The notes beneath the pieces were generated by a model that was not told where the DNA came from, did no database searches, and worked only from the letters and a program-made list of their open reading frames with translations. DNA of 13,691 nt from a virus (Duplodnaviria > Heunggongvirae > Uroviricota > Caudoviricetes). The stretch lies in IMG/VR virus record IMGVR_UViG_2734482780_000014, positions 1 to 13,691 of that record. The stretch is one strand, 5' to 3'. Position 1 is the first letter of the stretch; every line of letters begins with the position of its first letter. Shown piece after piece: positions 1,459 through 13,298 of this stretch. A program made the position numbers and the translations under genes.

Positions 1459-2622
1459 TTATACATCATTAGTACCTTCCTTATTTTTTGACTGGGACAA
1501 ATTTGGGACCGATGGGTTCAGGATCGAGTCTATTTGCCGTGCGTGTTCGGTAAGGTGATTAGGTGCAAGGTGAGCATATCGACGAACCATTTCGATAGAC
1601 TCCCAGCCTCCCATTTCCTGTAAAACTGACAACGGGACTCCGGCTTGAACCAGCCAACTTGCCCAGGTGTGTCTCAAGTCGTGAAATCTGAAATCATCAA
1701 TACCAGCCCGTCTCAGCGCCGCTTTCCAGGCTGTGTTTGCGTCATACCGCATCTTCCTTACTGTTGGCGCTTTCGTTCCGTCTGGTTTGGTACAGCTTTC
1801 CTTGTACACAAATACCCAACGGTGATGATTCCCGATTTGTTTTTTCAATACGCGACATGCAGTATCATTCAGCGCAACGCCAATTGCGCGGTTTGATTTA
1901 CTCTCTTCCGGGTTTATCCATGCCACCCGGCGCTGCATATCTATTTGTTGCCATTCAAGGTTGATGATGTTCGAGCGTCTTAAGCCTGTTGCCAGTGCAA
2001 ATTCAACAACAGACTTTAATGGCTCCGGACATTCATCAATCAGCCTTTGTGCTTCATGGGGCTCCAGCCAGCGGATCCGTTTATTCTTTGGTTGAGGCAC
2101 TTTAATAATTGGTGCCTTATCCAGCATTTTCCATTCACGCTCTGCGGCTCTTAGTAGGGCCTTTATAAATGAAAGATGCGTAGCCTTCGTTGCAACGGAC
2201 GCTGGTTTTGGCGTGTATTCTGGAACAGGTTTCCCTTTTTTTCTGCATGCTTCTGCCCTGAGTTTCCAGTTTTCCTCATGACGCCGGTTCGTCATTTTCT
2301 GCATTGCTGAATAAATTTTTGATTCAGTAATGTCTCTTAGTTGCATTCCTGCGAAATGTTGAAGCCAGAATCCGATCCGGCTTTTGTCATCGTCCAGTGA
2401 TTTTTTATGTGCTTTCTCTTCAAGCCACCTGACACACGCTTCCTCGAACGTTATATCAGGTATTTCACCAAGTTTGCTGACCCGCCATGCTTCAGCCTTT
2501 AGCTTGTCATGGAGTTCTGTCGCCTGCCTTTTGTCCTTTGTTCCAAGAGACTGTTTAAATCTTTTACCGTTCGGCAATGTGAAACTGGCGTACCATATTT
2601 CACCTCTGCGGAAGAGTGACAT
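1459..2622 (-). CDS. int: tyrosine site-specific integrase, P22 Int-like, 387 aa
   Basis: 387-aa ORF adjacent to thrW; translation closely resembles phage P22 integrase as remembered (MSLFRRGE...HDLRHTWAS...VRRYAHL); ATG at 2622 with SD AGAGGAAAG upstream. Confidence 0.94.
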
Positions 2623-5560: not shown

Positions 5561-5824
5561 AAAAAGGACGGTACCAGCCGGAAGCAAGGGTACAAACTGG
5601 TACCTCCAGGACTACACACAGCATAAAGTTGTGGTGCCGGGTGCCTCCCGGTGCCTGGCGAAGGTTGCACACCAGACGGGTGGGTATCCACAGAAGGTCG
5701 ACTGTCAGCCTCAACCTTAACCCGCGTGCGCTGAGCCGCATTCACCACAACGCTAAGGATTCTCTCTGGTTAAAAATACTTAGCTGTTATGTGCCTGCTT
5801 TTAGCCACATCAGGCGAGGTGGAC

Positions 5825-5876
5825 CTGGTTATTCCCCAACAACAAGGATTCGGTTAATCTGGTTATCCCCAACAAC
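5825..5876 (+). repeat. two direct repeats CTGGTTAT(T)CCCCAACAAC with 34-bp period, immediately upstream of the 5892 start codon
   Basis: Copies at 5825-5843 and 5859-5876 differ by one T; further GGTTA motifs at 5767 and 5853. Confidence 0.7.
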
Positions 5877-5891
5877 GCAAAAGGAAAAGAA

Positions 5892-6326
5892 ATGTCCGGT
5901 AATATCTACACGCTGTACAAATCCCACTGTGAAAATGTTGGAAAGTATCGGGGCATTGAAATCAGTGGGGTAGTGTCATCAGTCGAAATAAGCAAAGTGG
6001 AATCAAGGGCAACATTACTTACTCTTCTGGACCTTGTCTTACATGAGCACCGGAAGAAATTCGGCACTCCCTATAATCAGTTGAATGGGAAAAAGGCTCT
6101 GGTTCACCTTATTCTGATGAAGCATCACTGGATGCCAAAACAGATTAATGAGATGAAATTTGATGAACTTCTTCTTTCAATTCAGGATGAACTCACACTT
6201 GATAAAATAAGCGTAACCGCCCAGAAATTTTTAGATTATCGAGACTGGAGATCACAAATTCATCACTTTGATGATTTTGACGAAAATGAATGGGATCCTA
6301 ATTTGTCTGCACAATATCTAAAGTAA
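5892..6326 (+). CDS. hypothetical protein, 144 aa; AT-rich moron opposite to the leftward early operon
   Basis: ATG at 5892 with AAGGA 6 nt upstream; clearly more AT-rich than flanks; no recognisable motif; acidic C-terminus. Confidence 0.7.
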   Translation: MSGNIYTLYKSHCENVGKYRGIEISGVVSSVEISKVESRATLLTLLDLVLHEHRKKFGTPYNQLNGKKALVHLILMKHHWMPKQINEMKFDELLLSIQDELTLDKISVTAQKFLDYRDWRSQIHHFDDFDENEWDPNLSAQYLK

Positions 6327-6504
6327 CATCCTGTGATAAAACCGTGATTTCCTGATCCAGTTTTTTTAAGGAGTCTATTGTTTCCTGTCGATAAGACAGC
6401 ACTTCACGAAGCTGGTTTATAGCTGCCAGCTTCTTTGCCATCCACTCGTAAATTTCCTCATCTGTGTAGCCAGGCGCGACGATTTTGGGTTCTGTTTTGT
6501 GCAT
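6298..6504 (-). CDS. hypothetical small protein, 68 aa (first gene downstream of candidate pL; acidic, coiled-coil-like, not N-like)
   Basis: ATG at 6504 preceded by GAGGAG at 9 nt; the ORF-track start at 6519 is TTG. Its 3' end overlaps the 144-aa ORF convergently by 29 nt. Confidence 0.6.
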   Translation of the reverse strand: MHKTEPKIVAPGYTDEEIYEWMAKKLAAINQLREVLSYRQETIDSLKKLDQEITVLSQDVTLDIVQTN

Positions 6505-6548
6505 TTCACATCTCCTCAAGTTATCAGTTACTTGTTGATGGGGACCAG

Positions 6549-6561
6549 ATTGTTAAAGAGC
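6549..6561 (-). promoter_or_regulatory. rrn-type boxA-like element GCTCTTTAACAAT in the pL leader RNA, immediately 3' of a hairpin
   Basis: Minus-strand sequence matches the remembered rrn boxA core (TGCTCTTTAACAAT...) at 13 of 13 positions; lies between candidate pL and the first leftward gene. Confidence 0.5.
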
Positions 6562-6563
6562 TA

Positions 6564-6587
6564 AGCGTCCTGTAGGGCGCTTTTTTG
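6564..6587 (+). terminator. intrinsic terminator for plus-strand transcripts (stem AGCGUCC/GGGCGCU, loop UGUA, then UUUUUU)
   Basis: 7-bp stem with one G-U pair followed by a T6 run on the plus strand; the same hairpin on the minus strand precedes the boxA-like element. Confidence 0.55.
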
Positions 6588-6671
6588 TTGCTAACGAATC
6601 ATCCTGGACTTCATATGCCCCAGGCGGCTACTTCGTGGGCGTCCTGCCTGTTTGTTGTTTCGCTTGGGTAC

Positions 6672-6699
6672 ATTATGTATCTCAAAGGTACATTATCAA
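6672..6699 (-). promoter_or_regulatory. candidate pL (-35 TTGATA 6699-6694, 16-nt spacer, -10 CATAAT 6677-6672) overlapped by GGTACATTAT direct repeats (putative OL)
   Basis: Hexamers read on the minus strand just downstream of the repressor terminator; GGTACATTAT copies at 6667-6676 and 6687-6696 overlap the -10 and -35. Confidence 0.45.
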
Positions 6700-6702
6700 G
6701 TA

Positions 6703-6727
6703 TAAAAAAACCTGCCGAAGCAGGTTC
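6703..6727 (-). terminator. intrinsic terminator downstream of the repressor gene (stem AACCUGC, UUCG tetraloop, U7 tract)
   Basis: Minus strand reads GAACCUGC-UUCG-GCAGGUU followed by UUUUUUU, 12 nt after the repressor stop. Confidence 0.7.
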
Positions 6728-6738
6728 ATAAACATTGA

Positions 6739-7413
6739 TTAGGCTTTGATTTTGTATCTTCTTGGTTTTCCTGAGAAAATCACTGTACCAATTATAGAGC
6801 AATTACCGTTGATCTTAATGTAAGGCTCAGGCCAGTTTGGGTTTAACGCTTTGAGATAACGCTGTGTCCCATCTTCTATCAACCTTTTGAAGGTGGTTTC
6901 ACCTGTATCGTGCATCAATGCAATAACGTCGTCACCGTGGCAGGCAGGTACTTCAGGATCGACAAAAATCATGTCTCCCGGGCGGTACTCATCAATCATT
7001 GAATCACCTATCACCCGCAAGATATAAGTCATTTCCCCACAGGGTACAGGGCAGGGATACGTTTCTGCTGTGCTCAAATCAACCTCAGAATATCCAACTT
7101 CTTTCCATGCTCCGGCCTGTACCCATGATATGACAGGGACTAATGTGATTTGTTTATTAGTGATTGAAACATCAGGTTTTTTTGTGATGTTCGTTGTCTG
7201 GTGTTCTTGATCGAGCCATCCGACAGGCAGGTCGAAACATTTTTCGATGTGTCGTGCCATGCTGTCACCGATATTTTTAGTAGCACCATCTCCCATAAAC
7301 CTGCTGGTCTGGGTTGGCTCGCGATCAATCATAGTGGCAAAGGAAGAATTCCCGCCAACACCATCTCTCAGTTTTCTGGCGTTAGACCGCCGGATGTCAT
7401 GGATTGTTTTCAT
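6739..7413 (-). CDS. CI-type prophage repressor with C-terminal S24 LexA-like peptidase domain, 224 aa
   Basis: C-terminal region resembles P22 C2 (..VIGDSM.. and LNPNWPEPYIKINGNCSIIG vs remembered LNPQYPMIEINGNCKIIG); divergent to a cro-like gene across an operator region. Confidence 0.9.
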   Translation of the reverse strand: MKTIHDIRRSNARKLRDGVGGNSSFATMIDREPTQTSRFMGDGATKNIGDSMARHIEKCFDLPVGWLDQEHQTTNITKKPDVSITNKQITLVPVISWVQAGAWKEVGYSEVDLSTAETYPCPVPCGEMTYILRVIGDSMIDEYRPGDMIFVDPEVPACHGDDVIALMHDTGETTFKRLIEDGTQRYLKALNPNWPEPYIKINGNCSIIGTVIFSGKPRRYKIKA

Positions 7414-7428
7414 AACGAAATTAAAACC

Positions 7429-7449
7429 CTTGTACCGTTAAGGTACAAG
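7429..7449. promoter_or_regulatory. operator palindrome CTTGTACC-GTTAA-GGTACAAG (GTAC-N7-GTAC)
   Basis: Perfect 8-bp inverted arms in the repressor/cro intergenic region. Confidence 0.6.
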
Positions 7450-7453
7450 TATC

Positions 7454-7481
7454 TTGAAGGTTCATTTCAATCATGTAATAT
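7454..7481 (+). promoter_or_regulatory. candidate pR (-35 TTGAAG 7454-7459, 16-nt spacer, -10 TAATAT 7476-7481)
   Basis: Hexamers upstream of the cro SD GGAGG (7489-7493); the second operator overlaps the predicted start site. Confidence 0.4.
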
Positions 7482-7498
7482 GTACACCGGAGGTACAT
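7480..7498. promoter_or_regulatory. operator palindrome ATGTAC-ACCGGAG-GTACAT (GTAC-N7-GTAC)
   Basis: Same half-site and spacing as the 7429-7449 palindrome. Confidence 0.55.
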
Positions 7499-7503
7499 AT
7501 TGT

Positions 7504-7704
7504 ATGAAAGCGTATTGGGACTCTTTAACCAAAGAACAGCAGGGCGAGTTGGCCGGAAAAGTTGGCTCAACACCTGGCTACTTACGGCTGGTTTTCAATG
7601 GCTATAAAAAAGCCAGTTTTGTGCTGGCTAAAAAACTTGAGCAATGCACGTCAGGTGCAATTACGAAATCTGACTTAAGACCGGATATCTATCCGAAAGA
7701 TTAG
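7504..7704 (+). CDS. Cro-like HTH regulator, 66 aa (YdaS/Cro family with LRPDIY motif)
   Basis: ATG at 7504 preceded by GGAGG; divergent from the repressor. The larger ORF-track call 7201-7704 is antisense to the repressor and only its last 66 codons are credible. Confidence 0.75.
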   Translation: MKAYWDSLTKEQQGELAGKVGSTPGYLRLVFNGYKKASFVLAKKLEQCTSGAITKSDLRPDIYPKD

Positions 7705-7735
7705 CAGAACACTTTCAATTTTTAACCACAGAACG

Positions 7736-8299
7736 ATGAGGCTAATCGTGGGTAAGCATCACTGGAAAATAGAAAAACAGCCTGAGTGGTACGTGAAAGC
7801 TGTCAGAAAAACTATCGCGGCGTTGCCGGGTGGTTACGCTGAAGCGGCTGACTGGCTCGATGTAACAGAAAATGCTTTATTCAACCGCCTTCGTGCAGAT
7901 GGCGATCAGATTTTCCCGCTGGGATGGGCAATGGTTTTACAGCGTGCTGGTGGCACTCACTTCATTGCTGATGCTGTGGCGCAGTCTGCAAATGGCGTCT
8001 TTGTGTCTCTTCCTGACGTCGAGGATGTGGACAACGCCGATATCAACCAACGCCTGCTGGAGGTCATTGAACAGATCGGCAGTTATTCAAAACAGATTCG
8101 TTCAGCAATTGAAGACGGTGTAGTGGAACCGCATGAGAAGACAGCAATTAACGACGAGTTGTACCTCTCAATTTCGAAGCTGCAGGAGCATGCAGCACTG
8201 GTCTACAAAATTTTTTGCATTTCAGAAAGTAATGACGCCCGCGAGTGTGCAGCTCCGGGCGCCGTGGCGTGTCGTGACTGTGGAGAAACTAACGCATGA
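7736..8299 (+). CDS. hypothetical phage early protein, 187 aa (possible CII-like/YdaT-like regulator; function not verified)
   Basis: First gene after cro; ATG at 7736 (alternative GTG at 7748 after GAGG); its stop overlaps the next start as ATGA. Confidence 0.65.
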
Positions 8300-8634
8300 A
8301 CAGTTTAACAACACACTACCGTCGCTCGCAACTTATTGCGCTTCCTGTACCGGGTGGAAAAGCGAAGGTGGAGTATTGCTATGCAGTGAATGTACCAGGT
8401 GACAGGGAAATTGTAACCCACAGCTTTGCAGAGTGGGCTGTGGGGGATTTCAACCGGCAGAAGGAGGCAGTCCTTTGCGACAAGTTAACCGCTGGTTCAA
8501 AGATCACTACGGAGTGCCCGTCAGAGTCATTCGTTGGGAGCCGGAAACACAACGGGTTATCTACCTCCGTGAAGGCTATGAGCATGAGTGCTTCAGCCCG
8601 CTCGAACAGTTTCGTCGTAAATTCAGGGAAATAG
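8296..8634 (+). CDS. hypothetical protein, 112 aa (possibly YmfM-like by size and position; see frameshift finding)
   Basis: ATG at 8296 overlaps the upstream stop; the C-terminal third is Ser-rich and low-complexity, while an alternative frame (8433-8654) reads more protein-like. Confidence 0.45.
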
Positions 8635-12713: not shown

Positions 12714-13298
12714 TGTTTACCTATAAGTGACATTCCACAAGAGTAAGAAATTCATCTGAGTCAGAATAATCATTTTTATGTAGTCATGATACAGTGTATT
12801 TGTTGCTGGTGAAGTAAAAACGAGAAATCCCGCTTTTGAATGCTGACGTGCTACGGCTTCATTGGATATTCTCTTTTGTCTGTTCTCCATTGCGTCGGTG
12901 TTTTGTCGAGATTGTTAGCACACTGTTGCTGCTGTTTTTTTATCCAAGCGCTGCTAAATCATTGTAGATGGCACTATCGGGTATTGAAGCTGCAGACATG
13001 TCGTATACAATAGTCAGCTGCGACTGGCTGGTGAACTTCCGATAGTGCTAGTATTGAATTATGTCAAGCCGTTATCGATTTTACGTATTTTTTGTATGAG
13101 AGGATTTGCACCTCCTCCCACCGCTCCTCCATGACTTTACGCCACTGTCTCTAGGGCTGCTAAGTGCCAGGAACGGACATTGGTGGTATGCAGGATCAGA
13201 GGGGAATAAAAAACTTATTATATTGATTAAGATGGGGCTATTCTTGGCGACTTAAGCCGATATGATACAGATCAAGTGTGCTCTTTTAGGGTTCCATA

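Follow-up and report, generated by a model that had tools for sequence, protein, structure and literature searches.

Lysis/lysogeny switch of an e14/SfV/SfIV-type lambdoid prophage: a candidate operator map and a conserved leader RNA downstream of the putative pL promoter

Gene content and relatives of the locus

The immunity region was analysed within the window (the whole stretch of 13,691 nucleotides), whose left end carries tRNA-Thr(CGU) and an integrase. Its repressor gene (minus strand) and cro gene (plus strand) are divergent and separated by a 90-bp intergenic region:

6739..7413, minus strand: cI-type repressor gene (ymfK/cohE homologue), 224 aa; open reading frame with a presumed N-terminal DNA-binding domain and a C-terminal S24 autoprotease domain
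7504..7704, plus strand: cro gene (ymfT/croE homologue), 66 aa, YdaS/HTH_3-like, by open reading frame, Pfam and PHROG
7736..8299, plus strand: ymfL homologue, CII-like activator, second gene of the pR operon; Pfam Phage_CP76 (1.4e-13) and phrog_101 CII-like transcriptional activator (2e-70)

The repressor gene showed about 99% DNA identity to K-12 ymfK, and its product was assigned to PHROG phrog_4 (transcriptional repressor). Residues 93-212 matched Pfam Peptidase_S24 (PF00717, 1.5e-26), and A100-G101, S138 and K176 (in VQA100-G101AW, GDS138M and TFK176RL) aligned with A111-G112, S149 and K192 of lambda cI; by Pfam and this alignment, the S24 autoprotease, the Ala-Gly cleavage site and the Ser/Lys dyad are all present. 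At the N-terminus, residues 1-74 matched phrog_12107 ('transcriptional repressor', 8.7e-13) and residues 1-76 weakly matched the solved repressor 5d50 (E = 0.0018); no Pfam HTH match was obtained for this domain at E <= 0.01. The ATG of cro lies at 7504, not 7505. Cro matched Pfam YdaS_toxin at 1.5e-5 (25.1 bits, under the Pfam curated cut-off of 30), HTH_3 at 0.0065 and phrog_35 (transcriptional repressor), with a weak match to the solved 'phage antirepressor protein Cro' (8c7k/8co2).

At the DNA level, positions 6593-7520 were about 99% identical to the cryptic prophage e14 of E. coli K-12 (ymfK/ymfT), which has ymfK/cohE, ymfT/croE, ymfL and ymfJ and shares the gene order of the window. Shigella phage SfIV showed 98% DNA identity over 2 kb (6300-8300) and 98.8% across 6560-7710, and SfV 95% over 6300-8300. 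Roughly every second complete E. coli genome carries the set of ymfK, ymfT and ymfL. Phylogenetic footprinting was performed with 21 distinct diverged relatives from at least 15 genera, with cI 73-100% identical in amino acid sequence.

Predicted operator sites and promoters between repressor and cro

The initial annotation had described two palindromes with identical half-sites and spacing between the repressor and cro genes, and both were recovered, as CTTGTACCGTTAAGGTACAAG at 7429-7449 and ATGTACACCGGAGGTACAT at 7480-7498. The pattern GTAC-N7-GTAC has exactly two matches in 13.7 kb (7432-7446 and 7482-7496; 0.07 expected, and two reached in 0 of 200 shuffles), both between the repressor start (7413, minus strand) and cro. 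Based on conserved half-sites and free spacers, the operator would be a 17-bp sequence, TGTACC-N5-GGTACA, which the 224-aa repressor most likely binds as a dimer. Three sites of this form were delineated:

7431..7447, no strand: OR site A, TGTACC-GTTAA-GGTACA, perfect (extended palindrome 7429-7449); motif scan and fixed offset in 21 of 21 relatives
7448..7464, no strand: OR site B, AGTATC-TTGAA-GGTTCA, weak, three mismatches; motif scan and conservation, presumed operator role
7481..7497, no strand: OR site C, TGTACA-CCGGA-GGTACA, one mismatch (palindrome 7480-7498); motif scan and conservation

Across the 21 relatives, half-site conservation was 0.94-0.99, with 99% for the half-site columns of site A against 46% (0.46) for its 5-bp spacer, and 94% for those of site B, whose right half GGTTCA is invariant. 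This conservation argues that the sites are more than chance occurrences. The same layout recurs in two phages whose DNA is only about 70% identical, yong2 of Hafnia and EPP-1 of Edwardsiella. In a scan of the window allowing up to three mismatches, seven matches were obtained against 3.7 expected; the enrichment of the motif is limited to the two control regions, the matches at 7032-7048 (inside cI, two mismatches) and 12716-12732 being taken as chance on these figures. The searchable literature yielded no footprint, EMSA or ChIP with either YmfK or YmfT, and we therefore infer repressor binding at the operators.

The sites were placed relative to the two divergent promoters, whose hexamers were read from the sequence:

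7420..7448, minus strand: PRM; -35 TTGTAC (7448-7443), 17-nt spacer, -10 TTTAAT (7425-7420)
7454..7482, plus strand: pR candidate; -35 TTGAAG (7454-7459), 16-nt spacer, -10 TAATAT (7476-7481), predicted start at about 7488

The transcription start site of K-12 ymfK has been mapped by dRNA-seq, with a leader length of 0 (Romero et al. 2014, PMC4681348, Fig. 2E, Table S3). Since the window hardly differs from K-12 e14 in sequence, with 100% identity over OR, this start site and the SOS data from K-12 apply directly here; by the published start site, the cI mRNA is leaderless and starts with the A of its ATG (7413), which fixes the position of PRM and the roles of the OR sites. In 18 of the 21 relatives the distance between the PRM -10 (TNTAAT) and the ATG is constant at 6 nt; in L005, L017 and L022 it is one base longer. 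The hexamers of the pR candidate have eight of 12 consensus matches and were not listed by the consensus promoter scan; the TTG of its -35 and the GTAATATG/GCATAATG block are conserved in the relatives.

Site A overlaps the -35 and spacer of PRM, with its centre at -26 from the cI start, and may be the functional analogue of lambda OR3. Site B contains the pR -35, and its centre at -43 from the cI start corresponds to the lambda OR2 position. Site C overlaps the pR -10 and predicted +1, includes the cro Shine-Dalgarno sequence GGAGG (7489-7493) and may be the analogue of lambda OR1. Of the two operators originally proposed for OR, both are thus strong sites that hold, and the weak conserved sequence at 7448-7464 makes a third likely; on this site rests the reading that OR most likely has three sites, not two.

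Terminator, candidate pL and putative left operator sites

The features on the far side of the repressor gene were as follows:

6704..6727, minus strand: intrinsic terminator ending the cI transcript; stem 6727-6708, UUCG loop, U7 tail to 6704
6672..6699, minus strand: pL candidate; TTGATA (6699-6694), 16-nt spacer, CATAAT (6677-6672), ten of 12 consensus positions, predicted start A6665/A6664
6676..6692, no strand: putative OL1, TGTACC-TTTGA-GATACA (minus strand), one mismatch; motif scan; fills the pL spacer and the first two -10 bases
6656..6672, no strand: putative OL2, TGTACC-CAAGC-GAAACA (minus strand), two mismatches; motif scan; from the last -10 base through about +9

A UUCG-tetraloop terminator had been noted downstream of the repressor, and this was borne out by the stem GAACCTGC/GCAGGTTT with its UUCG loop and U run. 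Its fold reached -15.1 kcal/mol (z = -4.0; 0 of 200 shuffles as good), and the stem varies with compensation among relatives, for example ACCCGCTTGTGCGGGT and GACCCGCATTGCGGGTC. The candidate pL was likewise found right after the terminator, TTGATA-16-CATAAT beginning 4 nt past the U run; in K-12 and nearly all relatives the promoter reads TTGACA-16-CATAAT. In the record of phage Ayreon, a terminator and a 'promoter' are marked at the corresponding sites, the latter at the pL candidate.

The two direct repeats that had been described over pL are exact (GGTACATTAT at 6667-6676 and 6687-6696), but as direct repeats they are not the operators. Judged from sequence and geometry, each appears to be the conserved half of a 17-bp inverted-repeat site built like those at OR. 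The repeat alone is weak evidence, as at least two matches with at most one mismatch occurred in 34 of 200 shuffles, and its exactness is peculiar to this strain, the second copy being GGTACATTGT in relatives including K-12. OL1 is a perfect TGTACC-N5-GGTACA in many relatives, with variable spacers. The centres of OL1 and OL2 are 20 bp apart. Conservation at OL2 is restricted to its promoter-proximal half, and this site may be a half-site dependent on cooperative binding.

Alternative explanations for the palindromes

It was considered whether OR holds the two strong operators only, with 7448-7464 kept for the pR -35 and the upstream region of PRM, or for binding of Cro or of the CII-like YmfL. 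Site B has three mismatches to the consensus, its left half varies in relatives (AGTATC, AGTACC, AGTGCC, AGGTCC) and the TTG of the pR -35 lies in its middle, so that part of its conservation could come from this hexamer; moreover, it directly adjoins site A, and a centre distance of only 17 bp is unusual for cooperative dimers. Against this, GGTTCA(T) is invariant in 21 of 21 relatives despite its location in the normally unconstrained pR spacer, site B is just two mismatches from the consensus in most relatives and shares the 6-5-6 geometry of the strong sites, and it is centred where activators classically bind, at -43 of the mapped PRM start. A two-operator OR is consequently considered rather unlikely. 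The order of the sites is itself unusual: site A, the best match, would shut off the repressor's own promoter, the reverse of the lambda affinity order for CI, yet ymfK is transcribed in K-12 lysogens.

Readings in which the palindromes are not phage operators at all were considered much less probable. Sites for a host regulator such as LexA would directly explain the SOS induction of e14 genes, and ymfJ and intE appear in lists of LexA-regulated genes (PMC11002266); however, induction is late, unlike that of LexA targets, and was credited by the authors to the CI-like repressor (PMC11002266). CTGT-N8-ACAG with up to one mismatch is absent from OR and OL (all five matches in the window lie elsewhere, at chance level), and across genera the presence of the sites goes along with that of this cI type, which makes a host regulator very improbable. 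A role of the palindromes in RNA, as terminator or attenuator hairpins instead of protein-binding DNA sites, could be suspected because the scan reported a terminator-like structure with a GGTTTTAATT tail at 7449-7429 (minus strand), but every palindromic operator scores as a hairpin. Moreover, the cI start at 7413 is downstream of this hairpin, which therefore lies outside the maintenance transcript; the half-sites recur at pL with one half degenerate, where a hairpin is impossible; and specific bases are conserved, not merely pairing. An RNA role for the palindromes is accordingly hardly credible.

Proposed operation of the switch

Taken together, the locus is very probably the lysis/lysogeny switch of an e14/SfV/SfIV-type lambdoid prophage at tRNA-Thr (thrW), with a YmfK-type repressor acting on TGTACC-N5-GGTACA operators. 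In the proposed scheme, occupancy of site C would cover the pR -10 and start as well as the cro ribosome-binding site. Site B would cover the pR -35 and would be placed at -43 of PRM, where lambda CI at OR2 activates PRM. Occupancy of site A, by excess repressor or by Cro, would switch repressor synthesis off. The cI transcript would stop at the UUCG hairpin (6704-6727), and pL would be covered by OL1 over its spacer and -10 and by OL2 from the -10 to about +9, the distance between the two centres placing them on the same helix face. Upon DNA damage, RecA-stimulated self-cleavage of the repressor at Ala100-Gly101 by the Ser138/Lys176 dyad would free pR and pL, and Cro (YmfT) would next occupy the same sites. 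Sequence features, conservation, protein domains, the PRM start and the SOS induction of flanking e14 genes are documented in this analysis or in published work, whereas we infer the protein-operator contacts, the start points of pR and pL, and the activator role of site B.

For e14, late SOS induction has been reported for ymfJ and intE on the pL side and for ymfM on the pR side and was credited to the CI-like repressor (PMC11002266); the literature on this identical region thus describes SOS-inducible derepression of both early operons. The e14 repressor of K-12 controls the SOS-inducible division inhibitor YmfM.

The half-site differs from those of lambda and P22, as had been pointed out when a distinct immunity specificity was proposed; the specificity is of the e14/SfV type, however, and so is not new. 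Shared repressor and operator sequences place the window in the e14/SfV immunity group, whose members should be homo-immune. This family of E. coli and Shigella prophages is well known, and the switch described here is ordinary for it: what was found is once more the immunity region of a prophage type that ranks among the commonest in E. coli and Shigella, K-12 e14 included. In the SfV GenBank record, 26377-26445 (69 bp, corresponding to 7430-7498 of the window) is marked 'putative operator region', and the terminator after cI is also marked. The main value lies in an operator map that is clean and open to testing: it provides a consensus of 17 bp, two OL sites, and three OR sites positioned against an experimentally mapped leaderless PRM. 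No comparable map was found in the accessible literature, and it could go straight into the K-12 annotation.

A conserved structured leader RNA downstream of pL

The lambda-like order of terminator and pL that had been proposed holds as far as pL; beyond it there is no N gene or boxB but a different structured leader RNA:

6593..6656, minus strand: conserved structured leader, 64 nt, from about +9 to about +72 relative to the predicted pL start, by covariation

Helix P1 (6651-6656 with 6593-6598) closes the structure, which further comprises a small hairpin GGC-N5-GCC, an unpaired conserved CACGAAGUAGCCG stretch and a hairpin P2 (6620-6624 with 6604-6608) with a conserved loop. Though so far unannotated, the leader occurs in roughly one in three complete E. 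coli genomes, K-12 e14 included, and follows the early-left promoters of N-less phages with at least 15 different immunity types, covarying strongly. The structure emerged from covariation only, the single-sequence fold of the pL leader being no better than shuffles (z = +0.42). With Rfam 15 at gathering thresholds, only tRNA-Thr was matched in the whole window; at E <= 10 on 6250-7550, only sub-threshold matches to terminator-like sRNAs (STnc370, STnc50) were obtained, none of them on the leader. A second scan of the collection yielded core variants but no compensatory changes for pairing inside the invariant core. The strand was ambiguous by G-U versus C-A pairs and was decided by promoter context: read in the pL sense, the leader has strong sigma-70 promoters 12-25 nt upstream, and read the other way it has only poor ones, so it was assigned to the minus (pL) strand.

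No open reading frame of the pL operon matched an antiterminator family in Pfam or PHROG, and SfII, SfIV and SfV have been reported to be without N. The first pL reading frame (6298-6504) belongs to phrog_1744 (function unknown) and is not arginine-rich. A boxA-like GCUCUUUAACAA at 6550-6561 (minus strand) is not followed by boxB; boxA was rejected as a general partner of the leader, since no more than 16 of the 103 distinct downstream flanks contain it and these 16 share a single module type.

The leader resembles the put antiterminator RNAs of HK022 and HK639 in its length (about 65-70 nt), in beginning no more than about 10 nt from the pL start, and in belonging to phages that lack N. It was nevertheless rejected as a put homologue: covariance model R1 scored 89.6 bits on the window against at most 11.2 bits (E at least 0.27) in HK022 and HK639, with no hit at the put sites; the two putL sequences are clearly alike. 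The architectures also differ, with a closing helix around two hairpins in the leader and two open stems in put. Unlike the HK022 putL/putR pair, the leader has no second (putR-like) copy in the window, the right operon included.

It is possible, and is put forward tentatively, that the leader represents a new class of cis-acting RNA that replaces N and nutL in N-less lambdoid phages; most likely it would act as an antiterminator in the manner of put, or otherwise by engaging RNA polymerase or a conserved factor of the host. If it is an antiterminator, it would, after HK022 put, be the second way of achieving early antitermination through an RNA, and a far more widespread one. The leader is more interesting than the switch itself and of larger potential value.

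Comparison with lambda and related phages

The locus resembles lambda in its divergent cI and cro genes, 17-bp operators, leaderless cI mRNA and site at -43 of PRM, in the terminator followed by pL/OL on the cI strand, and in the S24 domain, which matched the C-terminal domain of lambda cI at 1.9e-9 and has the same cleavage and catalytic residues. It differs in its half-site (TGTACC/GGTACA against TATCAC in lambda), in the OR centre spacings (17 and 33 bp against 23 and 24), in having two recognisable OL sites against OL1-3 and in the PRM-proximal position of the strongest-looking site. Also unlike lambda, it has no rexAB between cI and the terminator, a Cro of YdaS type, and neither N gene nor boxB.

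Differences from K-12 e14 are found on the left side. The pL -35 is TTGATA in the window and TTGACA in e14, the P2 stem of the leader is CCTGG/CCAGG against CCCGG/CCGGG in e14, with a 1-nt insertion, and the DNA module left of the leader is a different one. The window prophage is located at thrW like SfV and SfIV, whereas e14 is at icd. Compared with SfV and SfIV, the window has every part of the switch; the cI and Cro of these two phages have been reported to be 100% identical to each other. According to published notes cII is absent from them, but both Pfam and PHROG class the ymfL homologue as CII-like. To the left of the leader RNA the SfV sequence differs, and for the left operon it is SfII that resembles the window.

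Identity of the locus

The left end of the window contains the following features:
1–1254, proA, inside which the window begins
1369–1444, tRNA-Thr(CGU), thrW
1459–2622, minus strand, integrase gene

The proA sequence, tRNA-Thr(CGU) and the integrase identify the window as the left arm of a prophage inserted at thrW, the attachment site also used by SfV and SfIV. DNA identity over 6300–8300 was 98% with Shigella phage SfIV and 95% with SfV. Of 5426 complete E. coli genomes, 2658 had matching DNA, with query coverage of 80% or more in 1304; in these genomes the genes are named ymfK (LexA-family repressor), ymfT (YdaS-family HTH) and ymfL. On alignment to K-12 MG1655, prophage e14 was ~99% identical to 6593–7520, and every base of the cI-cro intergenic region was the same. 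Given the e14 identity, the base-for-base match at OR and the likeness to SfIV and SfV, the locus is, by sequence, the e14/SfV immunity region.

In the SfV GenBank record, 26377–26445 is labelled 'putative operator region' and maps exactly to 7430–7498; a terminator is marked after cI as well. The phage Ayreon record annotates a terminator with a promoter right behind it. The immunity-region finding is correct; given these annotations and the e14/SfV identity, neither its type nor its sequence is new. The observation made in the initial annotation was thus confirmed as a whole, and its interpretation was supported with refinements: a resolved 17-bp consensus and a probable third OR site were added, the OL sites were recognised as palindromic, and sites were placed relative to the mapped PRM. 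The searchable literature yielded no experiments that map operators for YmfK/CohE or YmfT/CroE. Inside the leftward operon, two plus-strand ORFs (5629–6326) converge on the 68-aa ORF that comes first from pL (6298–6504); the SfIV paper lists them as unique proteins of unknown function.

Predicted operators and their conservation

The control region is bounded by two genes:
6739–7413, minus strand, repressor ORF
7504, ATG of cro

Both palindromes assigned to the space between them (7429–7449 and 7480–7498) were read directly in the sequence. GTAC-N7-GTAC matched twice in the window (0.07 expected), solely at these palindromes. A search with TGTACC-N5-GGTACA, mismatches allowed, gave a cluster of three sites at OR, adjacent or close to one another, and a pair at pL:
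7431–7447, OR site A, 0 mismatches
7448–7464, OR site B, 3 mismatches
7481–7497, OR site C, 1 mismatch
6676–6692, OL1, 1 mismatch
6656–6672, OL2, 2 mismatches

The pL sites have the same 6-5-6 geometry as those at OR. The direct repeats noted earlier at pL are real in this strain (GGTACATTAT, exact at 6667–6676 and 6687–6696), and each proved to be the well-matching half of an inverted repeat. The second copy reads GGTACATTGT in K-12 and nearly all relatives, and the exact repeat is peculiar to this strain, being due to a single change, TTGACA to TTGATA, in the pL –35.

Repressor relatives were gathered from one genome per species, giving 19 loci (cI 73–100% amino acid identity) from Pseudocitrobacter, Klebsiella, Atlantibacter, Leclercia, Phytobacter, Enterobacter, Pantoea, Trabulsiella, Kluyvera, Limnobaculum, Rahnella, Edwardsiella and other genera; phages SfV, Ayreon, Hafnia yong2 and Edwardsiella EPP-1 were added. 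The operator layout was common to all, with nearly fixed offsets; in three loci (L005, L017 and L022), site A lies one base further from the cI start codon. Among 21 distinct OR sequences, half-site columns of site A were 99% conserved versus 46% for the spacer, half-sites of B and C were 94% conserved, and the right half of site B, GGTTCA, was invariant despite its position in the pR spacer. OL1 was conserved like site A; of OL2, the promoter-proximal half alone was kept. As aligned, the OR/OL conservation has the form of a classical phylogenetic footprint, as left by a protein that binds DNA as a dimer. Neither OR nor OL contained a LexA-box-like sequence.

Terminator and promoters

The terminator proposed after the repressor was borne out: a stem GAACCUGC-UUCG-GCAGGUUU lies 3' of the stop codon and is followed by a U run (folding –15.1 kcal/mol, z = –4.0). 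The promoter scan likewise placed the candidate pL on the same strand, four bases past the U run. For K-12, differential RNA-seq identified five leaderless E. coli mRNAs, ymfK among them, and placed the ymfK TSS on the A of its start codon (Romero et al. 2014, PMC4681348, Fig. 2E, Table S3); as OR is identical in K-12, the repressor transcript should start at 7413 in the window. PRM was read backward from this position:
–10 TTTAAT 7425–7420 and –35 TTGTAC 7448–7443, minus strand, PRM
TTGAAG-16-TAATAT 7454–7481, plus strand, pR candidate read from the sequence, start near 7488
TTGATA-16-CATAAT, minus strand, pL candidate, predicted start ~6665, OL1 in the spacer and OL2 over –10 to ~+9

In 18 of 21 relatives the PRM –10 (TNTAAT) keeps this spacing to the ATG; in the remaining three the spacing is one base longer. 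Site A covers the PRM –35 and spacer (centre –26), and site B is centred at –43. In lambda, OR2 is centred at –42 and CI bound there touches sigma region 4; the position of site B essentially matches it. The pR candidate is weak against consensus (8/12) and was unlisted by the promoter scan; its –35 lies under site B, and its –10, start and the cro Shine-Dalgarno lie under site C. At the pL –35 (6694–6699), TTGATA in this strain contrasts with TTGACA in K-12 e14 and nearly all relatives, a change that may weaken pL.

Regulatory proteins

The repressor carries an S24 domain and aligns with the lambda cI C-terminal domain, Ala100-Gly101 falling at the lambda cleavage site and Ser138 and Lys176 at the catalytic dyad; for its N-terminal 75 residues, the only hits were to repressor families of PHROG, plus a weak one to the solved repressor 5d50. 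Cro is YdaS/HTH_3-like. In a K-12 SOS multi-omics time course, the pL-side genes ymfJ and intE and the pR-side gene ymfM were induced late, which the authors ascribed to the CI-like repressor being cleaved slowly (PMC11002266). The ymfL homologue (7736–8299) is CII-like (Pfam Phage_CP76, 1.4e-13; phrog_101, 2e-70), so the repressor may have a CII-dependent promoter for its establishment; the SfIV genome paper describes SfII, SfIV and SfV as without cII.

A leader RNA downstream of pL

Of the lambda-like arrangement first proposed, terminator followed by pL held, and the pL operon departed from it, with no N-like ORF among its ORFs. The predicted pL transcript contains a 64-nt structured RNA at ~+9 to +72:
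6593–6656, minus strand, leader RNA
6651–6656/6593–6598, helix P1
6620–6624/6604–6608, helix P2

Distant BLAST matches showed 6588–6659 to be conserved, always without annotation, in many phages of differing immunity regions (SfII, ST64B, mEp237, mEp460, ZF40, YeP1-3, SPN3UB, SEN34 and Klebsiella phages). The leader was also present in the compared loci L001, L003, L006–L019 and L030–L186. Among 5426 complete E. coli genomes, 1845 carried it, K-12 (in e14) being one of them, and it had no feature annotation there. Rfam 15 gave no match to it even at E ≤ 10, and the covariance model found no second copy in the window.

A pattern scan of viral contigs yielded more than 100 distinct variants, with abundant compensatory changes in P1 (AACGAA/TTCGTT, GCGAA/TTCGC, CCACC/GGTGG, GTCATC/GATGAC) and P2 (CCTGG/CCAGG, CCGGT/ACCGG, CCCCA/TGGGG, CCGAC/GTCGG). 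Across 105 sequences, 95% of cells were paired and the covariation score was 0.588 versus 0.173 in shuffles (0 of 500 reached 0.588); with partners slid it was at most 0.13. RNAalifold independently recovered P1 and P2, plus a small GGC-N5-GCC hairpin. The central stretch was nearly invariant, with no compensatory changes among the variants, and this core behaves as would be expected for a recognition surface. Counts of G-U pairs left the strand undecided. It was assigned to pL sense because of the promoter context: in that sense the leader starts 12–25 nt past the –10 of strong sigma-70 promoters, and opposite-sense promoters are poor. These early-left promoters are embedded in repeats that look like operators and fall into at least 15 types, each taken as an immunity type.

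The leader occupies a position corresponding to that of HK022 putL (PMC9378689), and the Shigella phages that bear it, SfII, SfIV and SfV, are the ones reported to lack N (SfIV paper); in mEp237 it lies directly ahead of kil, with no N gene. Homology to the HK022 and HK639 put RNAs, which resemble each other, was ruled out, as the leader covariance model had no matches against either phage. That the leader represents a new class of put-like leader is possible, though less likely than not; the plain alternative is a role in mRNA stability or translation. Adjoining the immunity region, the leader deserves separate follow-up.

Hafnia phage yong2 (L004) has the same operators as the window but lacks the leader; a tRNA-Gly(CCC) gene lies at 1318–1391 of this locus on the pL-sense strand, ~110 nt downstream of pL. 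In the window, the pL-sense strand has a hairpin at 6582–6563 and, after one base, a boxA-like GCUCUUUAACAA (6561–6550), which we take to match the rrn-type boxA consensus; no boxB-like hairpin follows GCUCUUUAACAA. Read on the plus strand, the 6582–6563 hairpin forms a strong intrinsic terminator (AAGCGTCCTGTAGGGCGCTT + TTTTTGTT). The boxA-like motif stood beside the leader in 16 of 103 distinct flanks, all with one type of downstream module. Another large subfamily (loci L032, L041, L047, L050, L055, L058, L061, L062, L114 and others) has a second conserved block, ACGCGCAGCAGGT...AACGTTCCGCCAGCCTGGCGAYAAGGSCAA, 10–60 nt downstream of the leader in pL sense; it contains a short hairpin (CGCCAG/CTGGCG) and could be an additional RNA element in the early-left leader. 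On the OL side of the Klebsiella spallanzanii locus (L010), the leader has lost its 5' half, comprising the 5' arm of P1, the small hairpin and the core, and pL runs straight into the P2 hairpin, a natural truncation that could serve as a comparison.
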